In this document: positions 4,676 to 25,816 of the stretch, one piece after another | How positions within the stretch are numbered: the stretch's first letter is position 1 | How the letters are laid out: each line of letters opens with the position of its first letter | Virus record (IMG/VR): IMGVR_UViG_648276652_000013 | Reading direction: 5' to 3' (one strand) | From: a virus | Taxonomy: Duplodnaviria > Heunggongvirae > Uroviricota > Caudoviricetes | Length of the DNA: 25,816 nt | The notes under the pieces: model-generated | What the model was told of the DNA's origin: nothing | The model's database searches: none | The model's input: only the letters and a program-made list of their open reading frames with translations | Translations under genes and position numbers: made by a program

Positions 4676-5028
4676 TACGCCTCCGATGTAACAGTCGTTA
4701 TTCCATAGAGAGTGTCGATTTCAGCGGAAAACATGACACGTCGGGTCGTGGTATCCACCGTCGTATTGAAAGAGAGGATTGATTTAACGCCCTGCGTTTC
4801 GAGGATGCGCTTACGGATCGCCAGGTTGTAAGTTTCTGGTTTTTGCCTGCCCAGCACGGACTGGATCCACGGTGTTCCCTCTGTGGTATCAAGAAACCAT
4901 TGCCCATACCACAATTCGAATCGCGTTTTCACAGCCTGCGCTACGGCCTCAGGCGAGTTAATCAGCCAGGTGTCATCACCGCTGCCAAAGGTGTAATCGC
5001 CATCGGCGTCTTCACGTCTGTATCGCAT
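4675..5028 (-). CDS. Baseplate wedge protein (Mu gp46 / P2 gpW / T4 gp25-like)
   Basis: 117-aa ORF between the spike and J-like genes, translationally coupled on both sides. Confidence 0.55.
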   Translation of the reverse strand: MRYRREDADGDYTFGSGDDTWLINSPEAVAQAVKTRFELWYGQWFLDTTEGTPWIQSVLGRQKPETYNLAIRKRILETQGVKSILSFNTTVDTTTRRVMFSAEIDTLYGITTVTSEA

Positions 5029-20564: not shown

Positions 20565-22186
20565 CAGGCCTGTCTCCCTAGCAACTCCCAGATGTTCAGG
20601 GCTGAATTCATTGGGGCATAGTTGATCATCACCGAGTCGGCAAGGTTTGGCGACCGGGTTCCATCAGGCTGTTTATCAATAACGATTTTTCCCACACCAT
20701 TAATGGAATAGGTCGGCTGCGAAAGCTCGATGATGAGTTTATCTTTGAGTGCCATGCTACTGCTGATTGAGATGATTTCGTCCGGGTTGTAAGCCATACC
20801 TTCAACCACGGCGCGCCAGGTATTCTGAAAAAGTTTACGTAACCGCCACCAGCTCTGGGCTTTGGCGTTAGCGAAGAAGTCCTTGTTCAGACGTGCGGCT
20901 TGCCCGTTGTCCCCGCGAACAGCTTCATCATCCGGATCAAATACCGCGCCACTACCTCGAAACGGTGTGGCGAGTATTGACGGTCGACGCGCAGCGTTAC
21001 GCAGTTCGTTGATAGCGCGTGCATCGCCGCGAACGCCAGCGCCCAGTCCGTCCTCGTCAAAGCGAAACTCTTCGAGGTTATCCTGTTCGCAAAAGCCGAA
21101 AATCTTCTCGACGGACTGATAAATGTCGCTGCCCACACCGGACCATTCCCGCACATTTTCCAGGAGGAAGCCATGACGGGTGGAAAAGGCATTTTTGTCC
21201 CTGCCTTCGTCGGCGACATCCATCGCGCCAAGTCGTTTGCCTGTTGGCTGGATACCCAGTTTGATATGCGCATCAACGGCAGCCTGTACCCATTCGGATG
21301 GAATCAGGACGCCTTCCGCTGATGCGCTGTAGTTCAGATCAAGTTCCTGTGCCACCACCACCGGATTATCGATTTTCTCGCATTCCCTGCGATACCACTC
21401 TTCATCCTTGCGAGGATCATCCCGCCAGTGGAATGTGAATACCGGTATCTTCCCGCCATGACGCTTCTGAGCGAACGGGTTAGCCATGCCGTTAACTGAA
21501 CTCAGGTCGATACGGCAACGCGTCGTTTGTGACAACGCCGCATCAATCAGCAGAGGACGCTGAAGGAATGCAGCCTCATCAACCAGATAAAGCGTGGTAC
21601 GGTCACCACGACCAATATTATCGCCAGCCTCGCCTTTGATAACGGCACCAGTTTCAGGAAACTCAACACGCATATATGGCGCGTGCTTCTTCTCACTCCA
21701 CGAACCGCGAAACTCTACAGGTAGCGTTTCCACGAACTTGCGCGCCTTCCAGAACAATGCTTTCGGGTCACCAGTGCTGTCGACGTATTCCTCTTTACGG
21801 GAGCCAAAACCGATAACCATTTCTTTGTTGAAGAGACAAAGCGAGCATGCCAGTCCGATCGCGGTCCAACTGAGCCCCATTTCACGGGATTTTTCGGTAA
21901 TACCATTCTCCCGATTGCTCCAGCGTTCCATAATCCAGTGGATCCACTCCTCCTGCTTAGGGAAGAGTAAAAACGGAATGGTCACCGGCAGGCCATAATC
22001 AATATTACGCGGGTCCGTTGTCATGCCCCAGTCGATGATGAACTGAGCCGGATTGGTTCGGTAAAACTGTTTTAGTGCAGGCAATATTTCAGGATTCTGG
22101 CGAATGCGCTGTAGGCGTTCCATCCGCCATTCAAAAACCATCTGGTAATCAGGATCTTTAAAATCGAAGGGGAATGGTAACGGCAT
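20564..22186 (-). CDS. Terminase large subunit
   Basis: 540 aa; ...[10 protein letters not shown]... Walker-B-like segment; coupled to the small subunit. Confidence 0.8.
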
Positions 22187-22190
22187 ACTC

Positions 22191-22742
22191 TTAGCCCATC
22201 ATTTTTCTATACGCTTCTGCAACCTGCTCCGGCGTTAAGTTGGTAATTTCTGTTCTGACTGGTCCTCCGTCAGCACCAGTCACTTCATTTTTGACATTGT
22301 CTTTAAACGCCTGAACAGAAACATGACGCCCGAGCAACTCAAGGTTTTTAACCTTATCAGGCCATTTGATTTTCTTCAGAAGTGCGGCGCTATCTGCGGA
22401 TGCCATCTCCACGACATCCATTCCTGATAACGTTGTGCGCCATACCTTAGGCCAGTCTTTAATGGGTTTTAGCTCACCGTTTTGCAGGAGAATGTCAAGC
22501 ACATCCATCTGGTCGATTTCAATAAGGCGATTAAGTACATATTCTGCATTAATACCAACAAGATCATTGCGTTGCGCTTTCAGTTCGGCGATTCTTAACT
22601 TGATGTCAGGTTTTGACAGGTTTTCGGATGCGGTACGGTTAGCTGTCTTTGCGCTGTACCCCGCCCGAATAGCCGCTTGCGTGGCGTTTAAATCGATGAG
22701 GTACTCGCGACAGAACATCTCTTGTTTGTCGGTGAGTGCCAT
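22191..22742 (-). CDS. Terminase small subunit (Terminase_2-like)
   Basis: N-terminus [34 protein letters not shown] is a hallmark of this small-subunit family. Confidence 0.8.
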
Positions 22743-22766
22743 GACAAAGTCTCAATTGGATTGAAA

Positions 22767-23039
22767 ATGAGTGATTTATTACTAATTAAAAACTGGTTAA
22801 TTGACCATCATGCACTATCGATTTTCTTTGGGTTTTTATCGGCTGGGTTATGGATCAAATCAGCAACAGCCAAAGTCAAAACAGGTAGAAGCACCGTTGT
22901 AGCAATTACATTTGATGATCCCAAAAAAAATGTAGATCTTCACGAATTTTTCTTAACTGCGCGGTTACAGTCTAAATATAACTCATATGCAGCTTTCGCT
23001 GCTGCTGTAACTGTGATTTTGCAAATGGCTGGCTATTAG
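22767..23039 (+). CDS. Small membrane protein (90 aa), plus strand, opposite to the late operon
   Basis: From the internal ATG at 22767 (MSDLLLIKNW...): an N-terminal hydrophobic segment (ALSIFFGFLSAGLWI) and a C-terminal hydrophobic tail; AT-rich. Weak RBS, so uncertain. Confidence 0.4.
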   Translation: MSDLLLIKNWLIDHHALSIFFGFLSAGLWIKSATAKVKTGRSTVVAITFDDPKKNVDLHEFFLTARLQSKYNSYAAFAAAVTVILQMAGY

Positions 23040-23127
23040 AAAACCTTAACCAGGATATTATTTACCTTTATCAATATCAGTTAACGGCTCAAAGTGTAAT
23101 GGTTCCACATTCTCCTAATGGAGTTAT

Positions 23128-23241
23128 TTACTCGCCCGTCTCGGTAGCCAGCTGCATAAAGCCATTAACCAGCTCAGGCTGACGTCGTGACGTCTTGCCC
23201 GTAAAGGTTTCGCCTGTTTGGGTTTGGTAGATGTCGGACAT
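23128..23241 (-). CDS. Small ORF (37 aa) with strong Shine-Dalgarno
   Basis: AAAGAGG lies 6 nt upstream of the ATG; translation MSDIYQTQTGETFTGKTSRRQPELVNGFMQLATETGE. Not in the track (under 60 aa). Could also be a gene remnant. Confidence 0.3.
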   Translation of the reverse strand: MSDIYQTQTGETFTGKTSRRQPELVNGFMQLATETGE

Positions 23242-23355
23242 TGAGAGCCTCTTTATCTGCTTGTGGGGATATATGGTTAATTATCCTCTGTAGGGGATAC
23301 TGCCATCACAATGGGGAGAATCATCGTAATGGCAATAAAAACCGCCCATAGGCAG

Positions 23356-23763
23356 TTAATCTGAAAGACCAAATTTCTTTTTTGCGTAGGATTTTAGAAG
23401 CTCTACACCAACATCTTTCAATACCGATAATGGTTGATCGCTAATTGTTTTTAGCTTCTCAAAAACATCCTTTTGTTGAAGGGTTTCTGCAAACTCTTGG
23501 CCTGATGACGTGAGTCTTACATTGGCTGGCCATTCACGGATTTCATTAAGCCCAATAGTAAGTCCTAATTTCTTAGGATCGCCTATTTCTAGAAAATGGT
23601 TACTGATATAACCTCTCTCAATCAATTGGTAGTAATGAAAGAGTCCTTTATCGCTGCTTATTTCGTATCCAGCTTTTTTAAGGTCATTAGCTGATATCAA
23701 TGGTCCGCCAGCCTTAATAAAAACCCCTAACATTCCCTTCAAGTATTCCAGATCGGTCTGCAT
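23356..23763 (-). CDS. Hypothetical protein (135 aa) in AT-rich island
   Basis: Clean ORF, about 35% GC in a 60-nt sample, between Rz and the terminase genes; no family confidently recognised. Confidence 0.55.
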   Translation of the reverse strand: MQTDLEYLKGMLGVFIKAGGPLISANDLKKAGYEISSDKGLFHYYQLIERGYISNHFLEIGDPKKLGLTIGLNEIREWPANVRLTSSGQEFAETLQQKDVFEKLKTISDQPLSVLKDVGVELLKSYAKKKFGLSD

Positions 23764-23821
23764 AAATTACCTCCATCCTGAGAAATAGAGATAATATTAC
23801 CCTTAAAATTCTTCATTAACA

Positions 23822-24283
23822 CTAATTTGAACACTGCTCTTTGATGTAGTCCTGCAAGTAGCCGACCTGCTTCGTCACTGTGACGATTCGCTCTCTGAGG
23901 GTGAAATAATCCCGTTCAGCGGAGTCAGTAAGTCCGGGGCTGGAAGCATCGCCCAAGCTGCCGGTGCCGGTCTTTCCGCTCGCTGGACATCGGGCATTGA
24001 AGTGCAGCCCACACTTGCCAGTGCGAACACAACGCTGCAGATCATCAAGCTGCTTTTTCGCATCAGCTAGTTCTCCGGTGTATTTAGCATCGAGTGCATC
24101 AGCATCACGCTGGCGCTGCTGCATGTCAGTAATGGTGGCGTTCGCCTTCTCCAGTTCACTGGCCTTGTTATCGCGCTGCTCTTTGTAGGCGATTGCGTTA
24201 TCACGGTAATGATTAACAGCCCATGACAGGCAGACGATGATGCAGATAACCAGAGCGGAGATAATCGCGGTTAACCGACTCAT
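23822..24283 (-). CDS. Rz: i-spanin Rz
   Basis: From the ATG at 24283, [34 protein letters not shown]... is very close to lambda/phage 21 Rz: N-terminal TM segment plus coiled-coil periplasmic domain. Confidence 0.9.
23875..24063 (-). CDS. Rz1: o-spanin Rz1 (lipoprotein embedded in Rz in +1 frame)
   Basis: 62 aa: signal sequence, lipobox-like ...ASVGC, then a proline-rich mature part (...[26 protein letters not shown]), as in lambda Rz1. Confidence 0.85.
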
Positions 24284-24371
24284 GACATCAACACTCCAAC
24301 GGCCAGAAACCACGGCCACGCATCGTTGCCATTGAATGCGAGCAACGCTGCCATGAAAAAGCAAATCATGC

Positions 24372-24869
24372 TCATTGTTGCCCCCACAAACAGACTTCAC
24401 GCTCAATCTCACGACGAGTCATCAGACCTTTCCATTGCTTACCGCCAGCGTATGTCCAGCGACGTAGCTGATCACATGCGCCTTTGATATCGCCCTGGTT
24501 TATTTTGCGAAGAAGCGTCGATGTTCTGAAATTGCCAGCACCCACGTTGTAAACGAATGAGTAAAGAGCGCCGCGCGTTGTTTCCGGTATATCGACTTTG
24601 ATGTACGGGTTAATTTGTCTGGCGACCGTGGCAAGGTCTTTATTCAAGAGTGTTTTGCATTCTGCTTTGGTATACGTTTTACCGAGCATGATGTCTTTTC
24701 CTGTATGCCCGTGACATACAGTCCATACACCAACAATATCTTTGTATGGTATGTAGCTGACACCTTCCAGACCATCGTTACCACTTGGGCCAGTGATTAA
24801 CACTGATGCTATAGCAATTGCTCCGCCACCAATAGCAGCAGCAACGACTTTTCGTAATGATGGAGGCAT
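24372..24869 (-). CDS. R: SAR endolysin (phage 21 R21-like lysozyme, T4-lysozyme fold)
   Basis: N-terminal Gly/Ala-rich signal-anchor-release segment ([18 protein letters not shown]), then an E...D...T catalytic triad region ([23 protein letters not shown]); start overlaps the holin stop. Confidence 0.9.
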
Positions 24870-25084
24870 TATTCACCTCTCGCAGCCTTGCGCTTATCTT
24901 CTTTAATCTTGAAATAAAGGTTTGTCAGGTACGTCAGCAGGCCAAATACCAGACTACCCAGCACACCGATTGCAGCCCACTGTGACGGAGTTACTCTATC
25001 GAGCAACTGTAAAAACCAGTAGCCAGCACTGCCTGCGGAGGTGCCGTAGGCAATGCCTGTTGAAATTTTGTCCATGGATTTCAT
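24869..25084 (-). CDS. S: Pinholin (phage 21 S21-like), dual-start motif
   Basis: From the ATG at 25084, [71 protein letters not shown]: two TM domains and an M-K-S-M dual start. Strong SD GGAGGTGA upstream. The track ORF's upstream extension is rejected. Confidence 0.9.
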
Positions 25085-25170
25085 AGCCTCACCTCCGCAC
25101 GGAACGGATGGCATAGTTATTATGTGTAGGCTTTCAGACACATCAATCAGAGCCTTAATTGATATATATG

Positions 25171-25816
25171 TGGATTTGCCCCTATATTTCCAGACACCTG
25201 TTATCACTTAACCCATTACTGGCTTGCTGCCGTAGATATTCCCGTGGCGAGCGATAACCCAGTGCACTATGCGGATGCCATTCGTTATAATGCTCGAACG
25301 CCTCTGCAAGGTTCTTTGCTGCCGTTAACCCGTCTGGTTTGGGCATGACACTGATGTAGTCACGCTTTATCGTTTTCACGAAGCTCTCTGCTATGCCGTT
25401 ACTCTCCGGACTCCGCACCGCCGTGTTCTTCGGTTCAAGCCCCAACATCCGGGCAAACTGCCGTGTTTCATTAGCCCGGTAGCATGAACCATTATCCGTC
25501 AGCCACTCTACTGGAGACGCCGGAAGCTCGTTGCCGAAGCGGCGTTCCACCGCTCCTGGCATGACGTCCTGTACTGTTTCACTGTTGAAGCCGCCCGTAG
25601 TGACCGCCCAGTGCAGTGCCTCACGGTCACAGCAGTCCAGCGCGAACGTGACCCGCAGTTTTTCTCCGTTATCACAGCGAAACTCGAACCCGTCAGAGCA
25701 CCATCGCTGATTACTTTCTTTCACAGCCACTCTGCCGGTATGTGCCCGTTTCGATGGCGGTACAGCGGGTTTTCGCTCAAGCAACAGCGCATTCTGGCGC
25801 ATGATCCGGTAAATAC
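25171..25816 (-). mobile_element. IS2 (IS3 family), right-end inverted repeat and 3' portion; element continues beyond window end
   Basis: Terminus TGGATTTGCCCCTATATTTCCAGACA at 25171 matches the IS2 terminal inverted repeat as I remember it, and is followed by the InsD coding sequence. Confidence 0.85.
25182..25816 (-). CDS. insD: IS2 transposase OrfB (InsD), C-terminal part (5' end outside window)
   Basis: ...[41 protein letters not shown] ... [34 protein letters not shown] integrase core of the IS3 family, recognised as IS2 InsD. Confidence 0.85.

Follow-up and report, generated by a model that had tools for sequence, protein, structure and literature searches.

The stretch of viral DNA analysed here (25,816 nucleotides, Caudoviricetes, IMG/VR record IMGVR_UViG_648276652_000013; hereafter the window) contains a segment of about 1 kb, at positions 22767-23763, that separates the lysis genes from the packaging genes. 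The late genes of the window are all on the minus strand, in the order P21-type holin, lysozyme, Rz (23822-24283; Pfam Phage_lysis) with embedded Rz1, the segment, the terminase small subunit gene terS (22191-22742; Pfam Terminase_2, 7e-40, with the RefSeq label 'terminase small subunit' in an identical prophage), terL, and a DUF1073 portal gene. A previous sequence-only reading had listed three open reading frames (ORFs) in the segment, and we found all of them: a 135-aa gene on the minus strand (23356-23763), a 37-aa ORF on the same strand (23128-23241), and a 90-aa gene on the plus strand (22767-23039), whose frame the program-made ORF list starts at an upstream TTG (22722). As that reading had supposed, none of the three proteins matches a family with a lysis or packaging function (Pfam, NCBIfam, PADLOC), and none matches a defence family (PADLOC-DB v2, Pfam, NCBIfam).

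The segment had also been described as AT-rich. Its GC content is indeed 39.6%, against a window mean of 50.1%, within the lowest 3.2% of 997-bp windows (window standard deviation 4.4%). This content is uneven. An AT-rich module on the minus strand contains the 135-aa gene (23359-23805, 37.4% GC), its extent being set by similarity to E. coli M10, a genome with a different terminase. Next come 229 bp of backbone-like DNA, also read on the minus strand (23130-23358, 48.9% GC). By sequence comparison, this piece is made up of a conserved leader plus codons 1-37 of a small late gene, the 37-aa ORF. The second AT-rich block is the reverse cassette of the 90-aa gene (22743-23129, plus strand, 35.4% GC), and its right-hand junction truncates the small late gene. 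The portal-terL-terS block has, for comparison, 51.9% GC.

Mosaic structure and distribution of the segment

We consider it fairly probable that the segment is a mosaic slot for cargo genes, or morons, at the lysis-to-packaging junction of a lambdoid prophage, filled in two or more independent events on either side of a piece of phage backbone. Morons, in the definition of Juhala and Hendrix, deviate in GC content, bring a promoter and a terminator of their own, and are expressed while the prophage is repressed (PMC3594210). The base composition of the two AT-rich blocks deviates in this way from both the window mean and the portal-terL-terS block. Morons are also expected to be present in some close relatives and absent from others at the same position, and this is what we observed among 5426 complete E. 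coli genomes. Of these, 370 carry this type of terS, 218 of them at ≥80% coverage; 10 have the 90-aa gene, 9 have the 135-aa gene, and only 9 have the whole segment. Since cargo accompanies terS in only 9-10 of the 218 genomes, the segment is dispensable. The sequence-only reading had proposed accessory cargo in the position of lambda bor, and such cargo is absent from about 95% of the E. coli prophages with the same terS.

The same figures bear on the opposite explanation, that the segment is essential for packaging or late functions, either as a pac/cos region or through an accessory packaging factor, and would be conserved in all relatives. In the late direction terS does follow the segment directly, many phages keep the 135-aa family and the small gene in this position, and winged-helix domains, such as the one modelled below for the 135-aa protein, are known in some small terminases. 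Yet about 95% of the relatives with this terS do without the cargo, and in S1-type prophages, whose terS and terL are 98-99% identical, unrelated genes fill the slot. The small gene, moreover, is truncated in the window and nonsense-mutated in S1-type prophages, and the elements of the segment adjoin at least four different terminase types. We regard an essential packaging role as highly improbable.

The segment had been taken for a single island. A tblastn map of all loci revealed instead three modules of separate ancestry, each travelling independently. E. coli HZ13 has the stub of the small gene, the 90-aa gene and the same terS, with a Rha-family gene replacing the 135-aa gene. In E. coli M10 the 135-aa gene (protein 89% identical) comes with the same terminator, the same leader and an untruncated small gene of 69 aa; the terminase is different there and an unrelated reverse gene stands where the 90-aa gene would be. 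The junction between stub and reverse cassette is identical in E. coli HZ13 and K. aerogenes, and the arrival of the cassette removed the 3' half of the small gene.

Directly upstream of terS, each relative carries a different reverse gene: one of 112 aa (locus L002, 3521-3859), one of 72 aa (L004, 3635-3853), YodC with DUF6953 (L005, 3403-3908), and one of 111 aa (L093, 3967-4302). The position abutting terS looks like a general slot for backwards cargo.

The 135-aa gene and the remnant of a small late gene

The ORFs are short, AT-rich and free of family annotations, and they could be seen as chance frames in non-coding DNA. For the 135-aa and 90-aa genes this reading is refuted. The ratio of nonsynonymous to synonymous substitutions (dN/dS) is 0.08 for the 135-aa gene, relative to the 89%-identical E. 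coli M10 copy, and also 0.08 for the 90-aa gene, relative to a 69%-identical homologue for which dS is saturated. Given such values, both genes are genuine and under purifying selection, and the suspicion that they might be non-coding falls away. Full-length homologues span 44 clusters for the 135-aa protein and 467 representative clusters for the 90-aa protein, and the 135-aa protein has a confident structure model. We give chance frames almost no credence as an account of the segment; the description is fair only for the 37-aa stub, as a functional unit.

The 135-aa gene is on the minus strand, as had been stated; it is not divergent, being co-oriented with the late operon. A GGAGG ribosome-binding site lies 7 nt before its ATG. 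Its product matches phrog_585 (PHROGs) from end to end (1e-26) and scores 15.4 bits against DUF2513 (PF10711; E 0.025), below the gathering threshold of 29.6, while 24 of its 27 relatives match DUF2513 at E≤0.1 (best 4e-5). By sequence, it is a distant relative of DUF2513 and not a member by Pfam's rule. All its homologues are from Enterobacterales, except one 32%-identical relative from Myxococcales.

The AlphaFold model (pLDDT 88) consists of a winged helix, the fold of DUF2513, followed by three helices. The winged-helix domain (residues ~1-97) is acidic, with an isoelectric point of 5.6 in the window and of 4.1-5.2 in relatives save one at 6.1 (n=26). The C-terminal helices (98-131) are basic and highly conserved, and the most conserved part of the family is the basic C-terminal helix PLSV(I/L)KDVGVELLKSYAKKKFGL. 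Repressors of the MarR/PadR kind have a basic DNA-binding surface; here only the C-terminal helices are basic. The acidic winged helix and the conserved basic C-terminal helix thus disfavour a classical repressor and favour a role in protein binding, and we infer that the product is more likely a protein-binding adaptor than a DNA-binding repressor of the classical type. Sequence searches of the PDB with the family returned nothing useful, a fold search of BFVD with the model returned only weak matches to uncharacterised or winged-helix proteins, and in a full-text literature search no paper mentioned DUF2513.

Homologues of the 135-aa gene in Pantoea, Erwinia and Citrobacter are on the late strand, between the lysis genes and terS, and Klebsiella phage ST846-OXA48phi9.2 encodes a 31%-identical DUF2513 protein in the same slot and on the late strand. 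Judged by these sequence comparisons, the gene is a recurrent resident of the slot in phages of these four genera. A more distant relative, in phage Chlobot, lies near the integrase gene instead.

An intrinsic terminator identified by a terminator scan (23340-23357, minus strand) overlaps the stop codon of the 135-aa gene, and a terminator overlapping the stop codon was present wherever homologues were examined (equivalent stem and T-run in M10 and in loci L012, L013 and L015). The gene thereby has one of the hallmarks of a moron, a terminator of its own. A consensus scan for sigma-70 promoters gave no usable candidate for this gene, the number of hits not exceeding that of shuffled sequences.

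The 37-aa ORF had been noted for its strong ribosome-binding site, and AAGAGG does occur 6 nt before its ATG. It is nevertheless no gene of its own, being the truncated remnant of a late gene whose usual length, in 33 distinct sequence contexts, is 60-72 aa. The stub covers positions 1-41 of phrog_6581 (66 positions; PHROGs) and has lost four internal codons; homology with the full small gene ends exactly at its stop codon, where the stub meets the AT-rich reverse cassette. In the cultured phages CobraSix, vB_EhrS_49/59 and Pocitis76 the small gene is the last before the record ends, i.e. just before terS. In S1-type prophages it carries a TAC-to-TAA nonsense mutation at codon 17 (L004, 4000-4119, and about 14 other E. 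coli genomes), and goes unannotated in RefSeq; the leader and the downstream DNA are still about 80% identical to the window. This repeated decay suggests that the gene is dispensable.

The leader upstream of the stub (23242-23358) is conserved and comprises, in order, the terminator, a 16-bp hairpin and two TATCCCC-N7-GGATAA boxes. The boxes are direct copies of TATCCCC-N7-(G/A)GATAA (23253-23299, minus strand), directly upstream of the ribosome-binding site of the stub. They are nearly invariant in 6 diverse prophages and are found in one or two copies in the 33 contexts, across which the proximal box and the ribosome-binding site are almost invariant in spite of different neighbours. As RNA hairpins, the boxes received no compensatory support in six sequences, and we dropped this possibility. 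The 16-bp RNA hairpin (23298-23337, minus strand; z -3.3 for a 126-nt segment) is replaced in relatives by a hairpin of other sequence at the same position, with a 7-bp inner helix that is 100% paired and has 4 compensatory pairs. We nevertheless downgraded it as a conserved RNA element, as several of its variants are canonical intrinsic terminators; the stems may be non-homologous and reflect terminator swapping. A search of Rfam over 22000-25816 gave no match, and the two leaders of the segment gave chance-level matches only.

The reverse cassette, its predicted membrane protein and its leader

The 90-aa gene matches phrog_14357 (4e-62, PHROGs) and no Pfam family. It had been described as encoding a membrane protein on the opposite strand, and we confirmed both its plus-strand orientation and, by hydropathy, two conserved hydrophobic segments (residues ~17-33 and 73-89) flanking a central loop rich in lysine and arginine. 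Both segments are present in all 26 aligned members, one frameshifted C-terminus excepted, with Kyte-Doolittle values over 17 residues of 1.2-2.6 and 3-7 lysines or arginines in the loop; they are clear-cut in the members from Pseudomonas. The family comprised 4 clusters in a single-sequence search, 42 in a profile search and 467 representatives in an exhaustive HMMER search (E≤1e-3). Nearly all of the best 150 of the 467 are full-length, at 75-100 aa. W29 is invariant, A26, T64, Q68, N72 and A76 are nearly so, and the motif can be written S-A-x2-W ... T-x3-Q-x-K-(W/Y)-N.

Family searches told us little about the function of this protein. It had no family-level match in Pfam, NCBIfam, PADLOC or PDB sequence searches, and PADLOC gave one chance-level hit on 65 relatives. 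We found no Pfam match to small membrane and exclusion families (YebO/gp15, T4 Imm, SieB) among the window protein and its 26 and 65 relatives, and none to holin families for the protein or its relatives. Lambda_Bor gave no Pfam hit either, and the N-terminus, MSDLLLIKNWLIDHH, has no lipobox. An apparent fusion with DUF2513 in relative P0153 was discarded, being a sub-threshold hit that overlaps the second hydrophobic segment. Two long proteins, P0110 (1711 aa) and P0224 (995 aa), match positions 28-66 of the family profile in 12 and 7 separate stretches, respectively, which may be a loop-like repeat or low-complexity noise.

Backwards placement of the 90-aa gene at the lysis-terminase junction recurs in two K. 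aerogenes prophages, in three Hafnia prophages, each with its own terminase type, in Pantoea agglomerans and in another Pantoea prophage. In Hafnia it is directly convergent with Rz. Other copies lie in E. coli, adjacent to RnlAB toxin-antitoxin genes and a tail fibre gene; behind baseplate genes, with a DUF2441 gene as neighbour; in two Pseudomonas prophages; and in one chromosomal islet. No neighbour is constant across these contexts.

The two cargo genes might be thought to form one system, for instance a sensor or regulator and a membrane effector in anti-phage defence. Both are AT-rich, 9 of the 10 E. coli genomes with the 90-aa gene also have the 135-aa gene, and a winged-helix protein together with a small membrane protein would be a plausible defence architecture. 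The co-occurrence, however, comes from near-identical prophages (99-100% identity), and each gene is found alone among HZ13, M10, K. aerogenes, Hafnia, Pantoea and Erwinia. In the window they are on opposite strands with a backbone remnant between them. PADLOC gave nothing above chance, and no fusion protein was found, the lone DUF2513 hit among 65 members of the family being sub-threshold. A joint system is, in our view, very unlikely.

Instead of excluding phages, the 90-aa product might damage membranes as a toxin, or modulate lysis in the manner of a holin or antiholin. It would be a small two-helix membrane protein encoded beside the lysis cassette (and convergent with Rz in Hafnia), its E. 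coli homologue adjoins RnlAB, and the leader hairpin and overlapping antisense transcription discussed below recall tightly controlled toxins. Against this, the gene is read against the lysis genes and hence is not co-expressed with them, 90 aa exceeds the typical size of type I toxins, holin families gave no match, and in chromosomal islets the gene is alone with no obvious antitoxin. We think such a role unlikely.

Wherever we examined an enterobacterial context, the 90-aa gene was preceded by DNA from the 5' end of a Terminase_2 terS. This remnant, of 45-250 bp, can be intact, a 43-82-codon fragment beside a different, real terminase, frameshifted, or only 45 bp. In the window terS is intact and its first ~14 codons overlap the leader of the 90-aa gene in antisense. 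The leader contains a hairpin (22700-22741, plus strand) inside the 5' end of terS, which folds at -22.1 kcal/mol on the plus strand (z -4.7, 0 of 200 shuffles) and at -13.7 kcal/mol on the minus, or terS, strand; the stronger plus-strand fold is due to G.U pairs. A comparison of 7 homologous leaders gave 92% pairing over 11 pairs and 4 compensatory changes, a result reached by 4 of 500 shuffles; the hairpin is weak in one context (L007). In a Pantoea locus (L094) the remnant has shrunk to 45 bp with 93% identity, essentially the hairpin alone. We read the hairpin as a putative leader element of the 90-aa mRNA, from a small sample that is half confounded by coding constraint on terS. The block at -85..-26 from the gene is 79-85% identical, against 70-72% for the coding sequence, which suggests a putative regulatory region. 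In the Pseudomonas members (L083, L096) the terS remnant is absent. Just before the ribosome-binding site, some 15-45 nt ahead of the gene start (at 5001), they carry a conserved inverted repeat that is GC-rich, CCGGC-N-GCCGG, so that a leader hairpin may be general in the family.

Manual and tool-based searches for sigma-70, sigma-54 and sigma-E promoters found none that was convincing. An invariant T..A.T at 22688-22693 (TTAAAT) has no -35 partner; it would place the transcription start at the base of the leader hairpin, and we mention it only as a lead.

The antisense arrangement raises the question of whether the key product of the cassette is an RNA. The leader of the 90-aa mRNA, antisense to the conserved start of terS, would then block translation of the resident or an incoming terS. 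Consistent with this, enterobacterial contexts, as far as examined, retain the terS remnant even after a frameshift in terS or its reduction to 45 bp, the upstream block is better conserved than the coding sequence, and there is a precedent in STnc6030, the phage-excluding antisense RNA of prophage BTP1 (PMC7067206). Several observations weigh on the other side: the compensatory changes keep the hairpin and not the sequence, complementarity to the terS ribosome-binding site is putative, the Pseudomonas members have no remnant, and the 90-aa protein is under strong purifying selection. We find this account rather improbable. The same low likelihood attaches to a dual-function cassette, in which the 90-aa protein would be combined with an mRNA leader antisense to the first ~15 codons and the start region of a Terminase_2-type terS. 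If that were true, the leader would keep packaging genes from leaky expression in the lysogen, or would disrupt packaging when related phages enter.

Proposed expression in the lysogen and relation to known systems

Returning to the mosaic cargo slot, we propose that each cargo gene would be a transcription unit of its own, active in the lysogen. In an operon under Q antitermination, a terminator stops only polymerase that has not been modified, which is the usual argument for independent transcription of such genes. Because the terminator after the 135-aa gene would matter only to polymerase unmodified by the Q antiterminator, and because the direction of the 90-aa gene opposes that of the late operon, independent transcription of the two in the repressed prophage is the most likely case. 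For the 90-aa gene, expression from the lysogen, which the sequence-only reading had also suggested, is inferred from orientation only. During lytic growth, convergent late transcription would silence it. Its product is most likely a helical hairpin inserted in the inner membrane, with the positively charged loop in the cytoplasm, and would act at the envelope to the lysogen's advantage. Among single roles the likeliest, with HK97 gp15 and T4 Imm as models, would be to block the entry of superinfecting phages, a possibility that we put forward with low confidence.

Several observations weigh against this interpretation. Neither cargo gene has a consensus sigma-70 promoter; the sole plus-strand match near the 90-aa gene overlaps its ATG, and no terminator-like structure follows it. 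The hydropathy of the window protein is moderate (1.44 and 1.50 over 17 residues), and its AlphaFold2 model is poor (pLDDT 54), with two long helices. Neither protein is tied to any tested function by an above-threshold match in PADLOC, Pfam, NCBIfam or PDB. Since the 135-aa gene runs in the direction of the late genes, it may simply be one of them, in which case its steady position would point to a role in the lytic cycle rather than in the lysogen. Finally, an insertion sequence (IS) lies between the late genes and Q, so that the prophage may be defective and selection on its cargo may have changed.

This last point comes from the upstream flank of the late operon. The 99% identity with a prophage of E. 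coli OkiPb01713 is collinear only up to 25123; beyond that point the OkiPb01713 prophage continues with tRNA-Thr, tRNA-Asn and Q, and the window (25124-25816) with an IS element of the IS3 family (ORF 25182-25802, minus strand; Pfam rve, rve_3). The IS sits 39 bp upstream of the holin start codon (25084), and the late operon is probably cut off here from its Q-dependent promoter. The holin ORF given by the program (24869-25207, 112 aa) starts at a GTG inside the IS; the real one has 71 aa (24869-25084), according to the annotation of the identical prophage. The only other strongly AT-rich stretch of the window is at 1-1400 (minimum 36% GC). There, a plus-strand ORF (334-1065) that adjoins the minus-strand tail-fibre gene matches the C-terminal two thirds of the Acyl_transf_3 model only, and is possibly a truncated O-antigen acetylase moron.

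The region offers a worked example of how cargo builds up at the lambdoid lysis-terminase junction, with late-oriented cargo after Rz, reverse cargo against terS, and a decaying backbone between them. Two families are better defined as a result: the predicted two-helix membrane family of about 90 aa, with its 467 representative clusters and its strong habit of sitting backwards in the slot, and the acidic winged-helix DUF2513-like family, whose C-terminal helix is the most conserved part. If the 90-aa protein were an exclusion or envelope factor, a widespread prophage-borne family would be added to those known, and if its leader acted on terS, this would be a new way of interfering with packaging. 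With neither of these outcomes the finding is an ordinary one.

The closest parallel is lambda bor, which lies between Rz/Rz1 and the first packaging gene, in reverse to the late operon, encodes a small envelope protein and is dispensable for lytic growth. The 90-aa gene occupies the same slot in the same reverse orientation and is, by sequence, the positional and orientational counterpart of bor, while its product matches neither Bor nor other known small envelope or exclusion families. Bor is an outer-membrane lipoprotein (Pfam Lambda_Bor), whereas the 90-aa protein has neither signal peptide nor lipobox cysteine and has two predicted internal hydrophobic helices. Bor is also a precedent for a beneficial gene expressed from a prophage (PMC3594210). 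In HK97 the exclusion protein gp15 is small, resides in the inner membrane and has homologues on chromosomes (PMC3594210). Like gp15 (YebO-like) and T4 Imm, the 90-aa protein would be a small inner-membrane protein, here a predicted one, encoded by a moron in a late operon, and as with gp15 a homologue is found outside prophages, in the chromosomal islet. The differences are that three Pfam scans revealed no sequence relationship, that the genome position is another, and that exclusion is a guess in the present case.

The 135-aa protein shares with DUF2513 and PHROG 585 the winged-helix fold, by its model, the end-to-end phrog_585 match, and the slot occupied in ST846-OXA48phi9.2; it differs from DUF2513 by its extra, strongly conserved basic C-terminal helices and its acidic winged-helix domain. 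We know of no member of DUF2513 with an established function. Genes antisense to lytic genes are characteristic of accessory loci, and one antisense transcript made in the lysogen, STnc6030 (non-coding, about 786 nt, opposite tailspike and injection genes), has demonstrated exclusion activity (PMC7067206). In the 90-aa gene, too, the leader runs antisense to a late gene, here terS; unlike STnc6030, it belongs to a protein-coding gene, and its transcription and antisense effect are only proposed. What is new here is the cargo genes themselves, as additional members of uncharacterised families; the type of slot that they occupy is a classic one.

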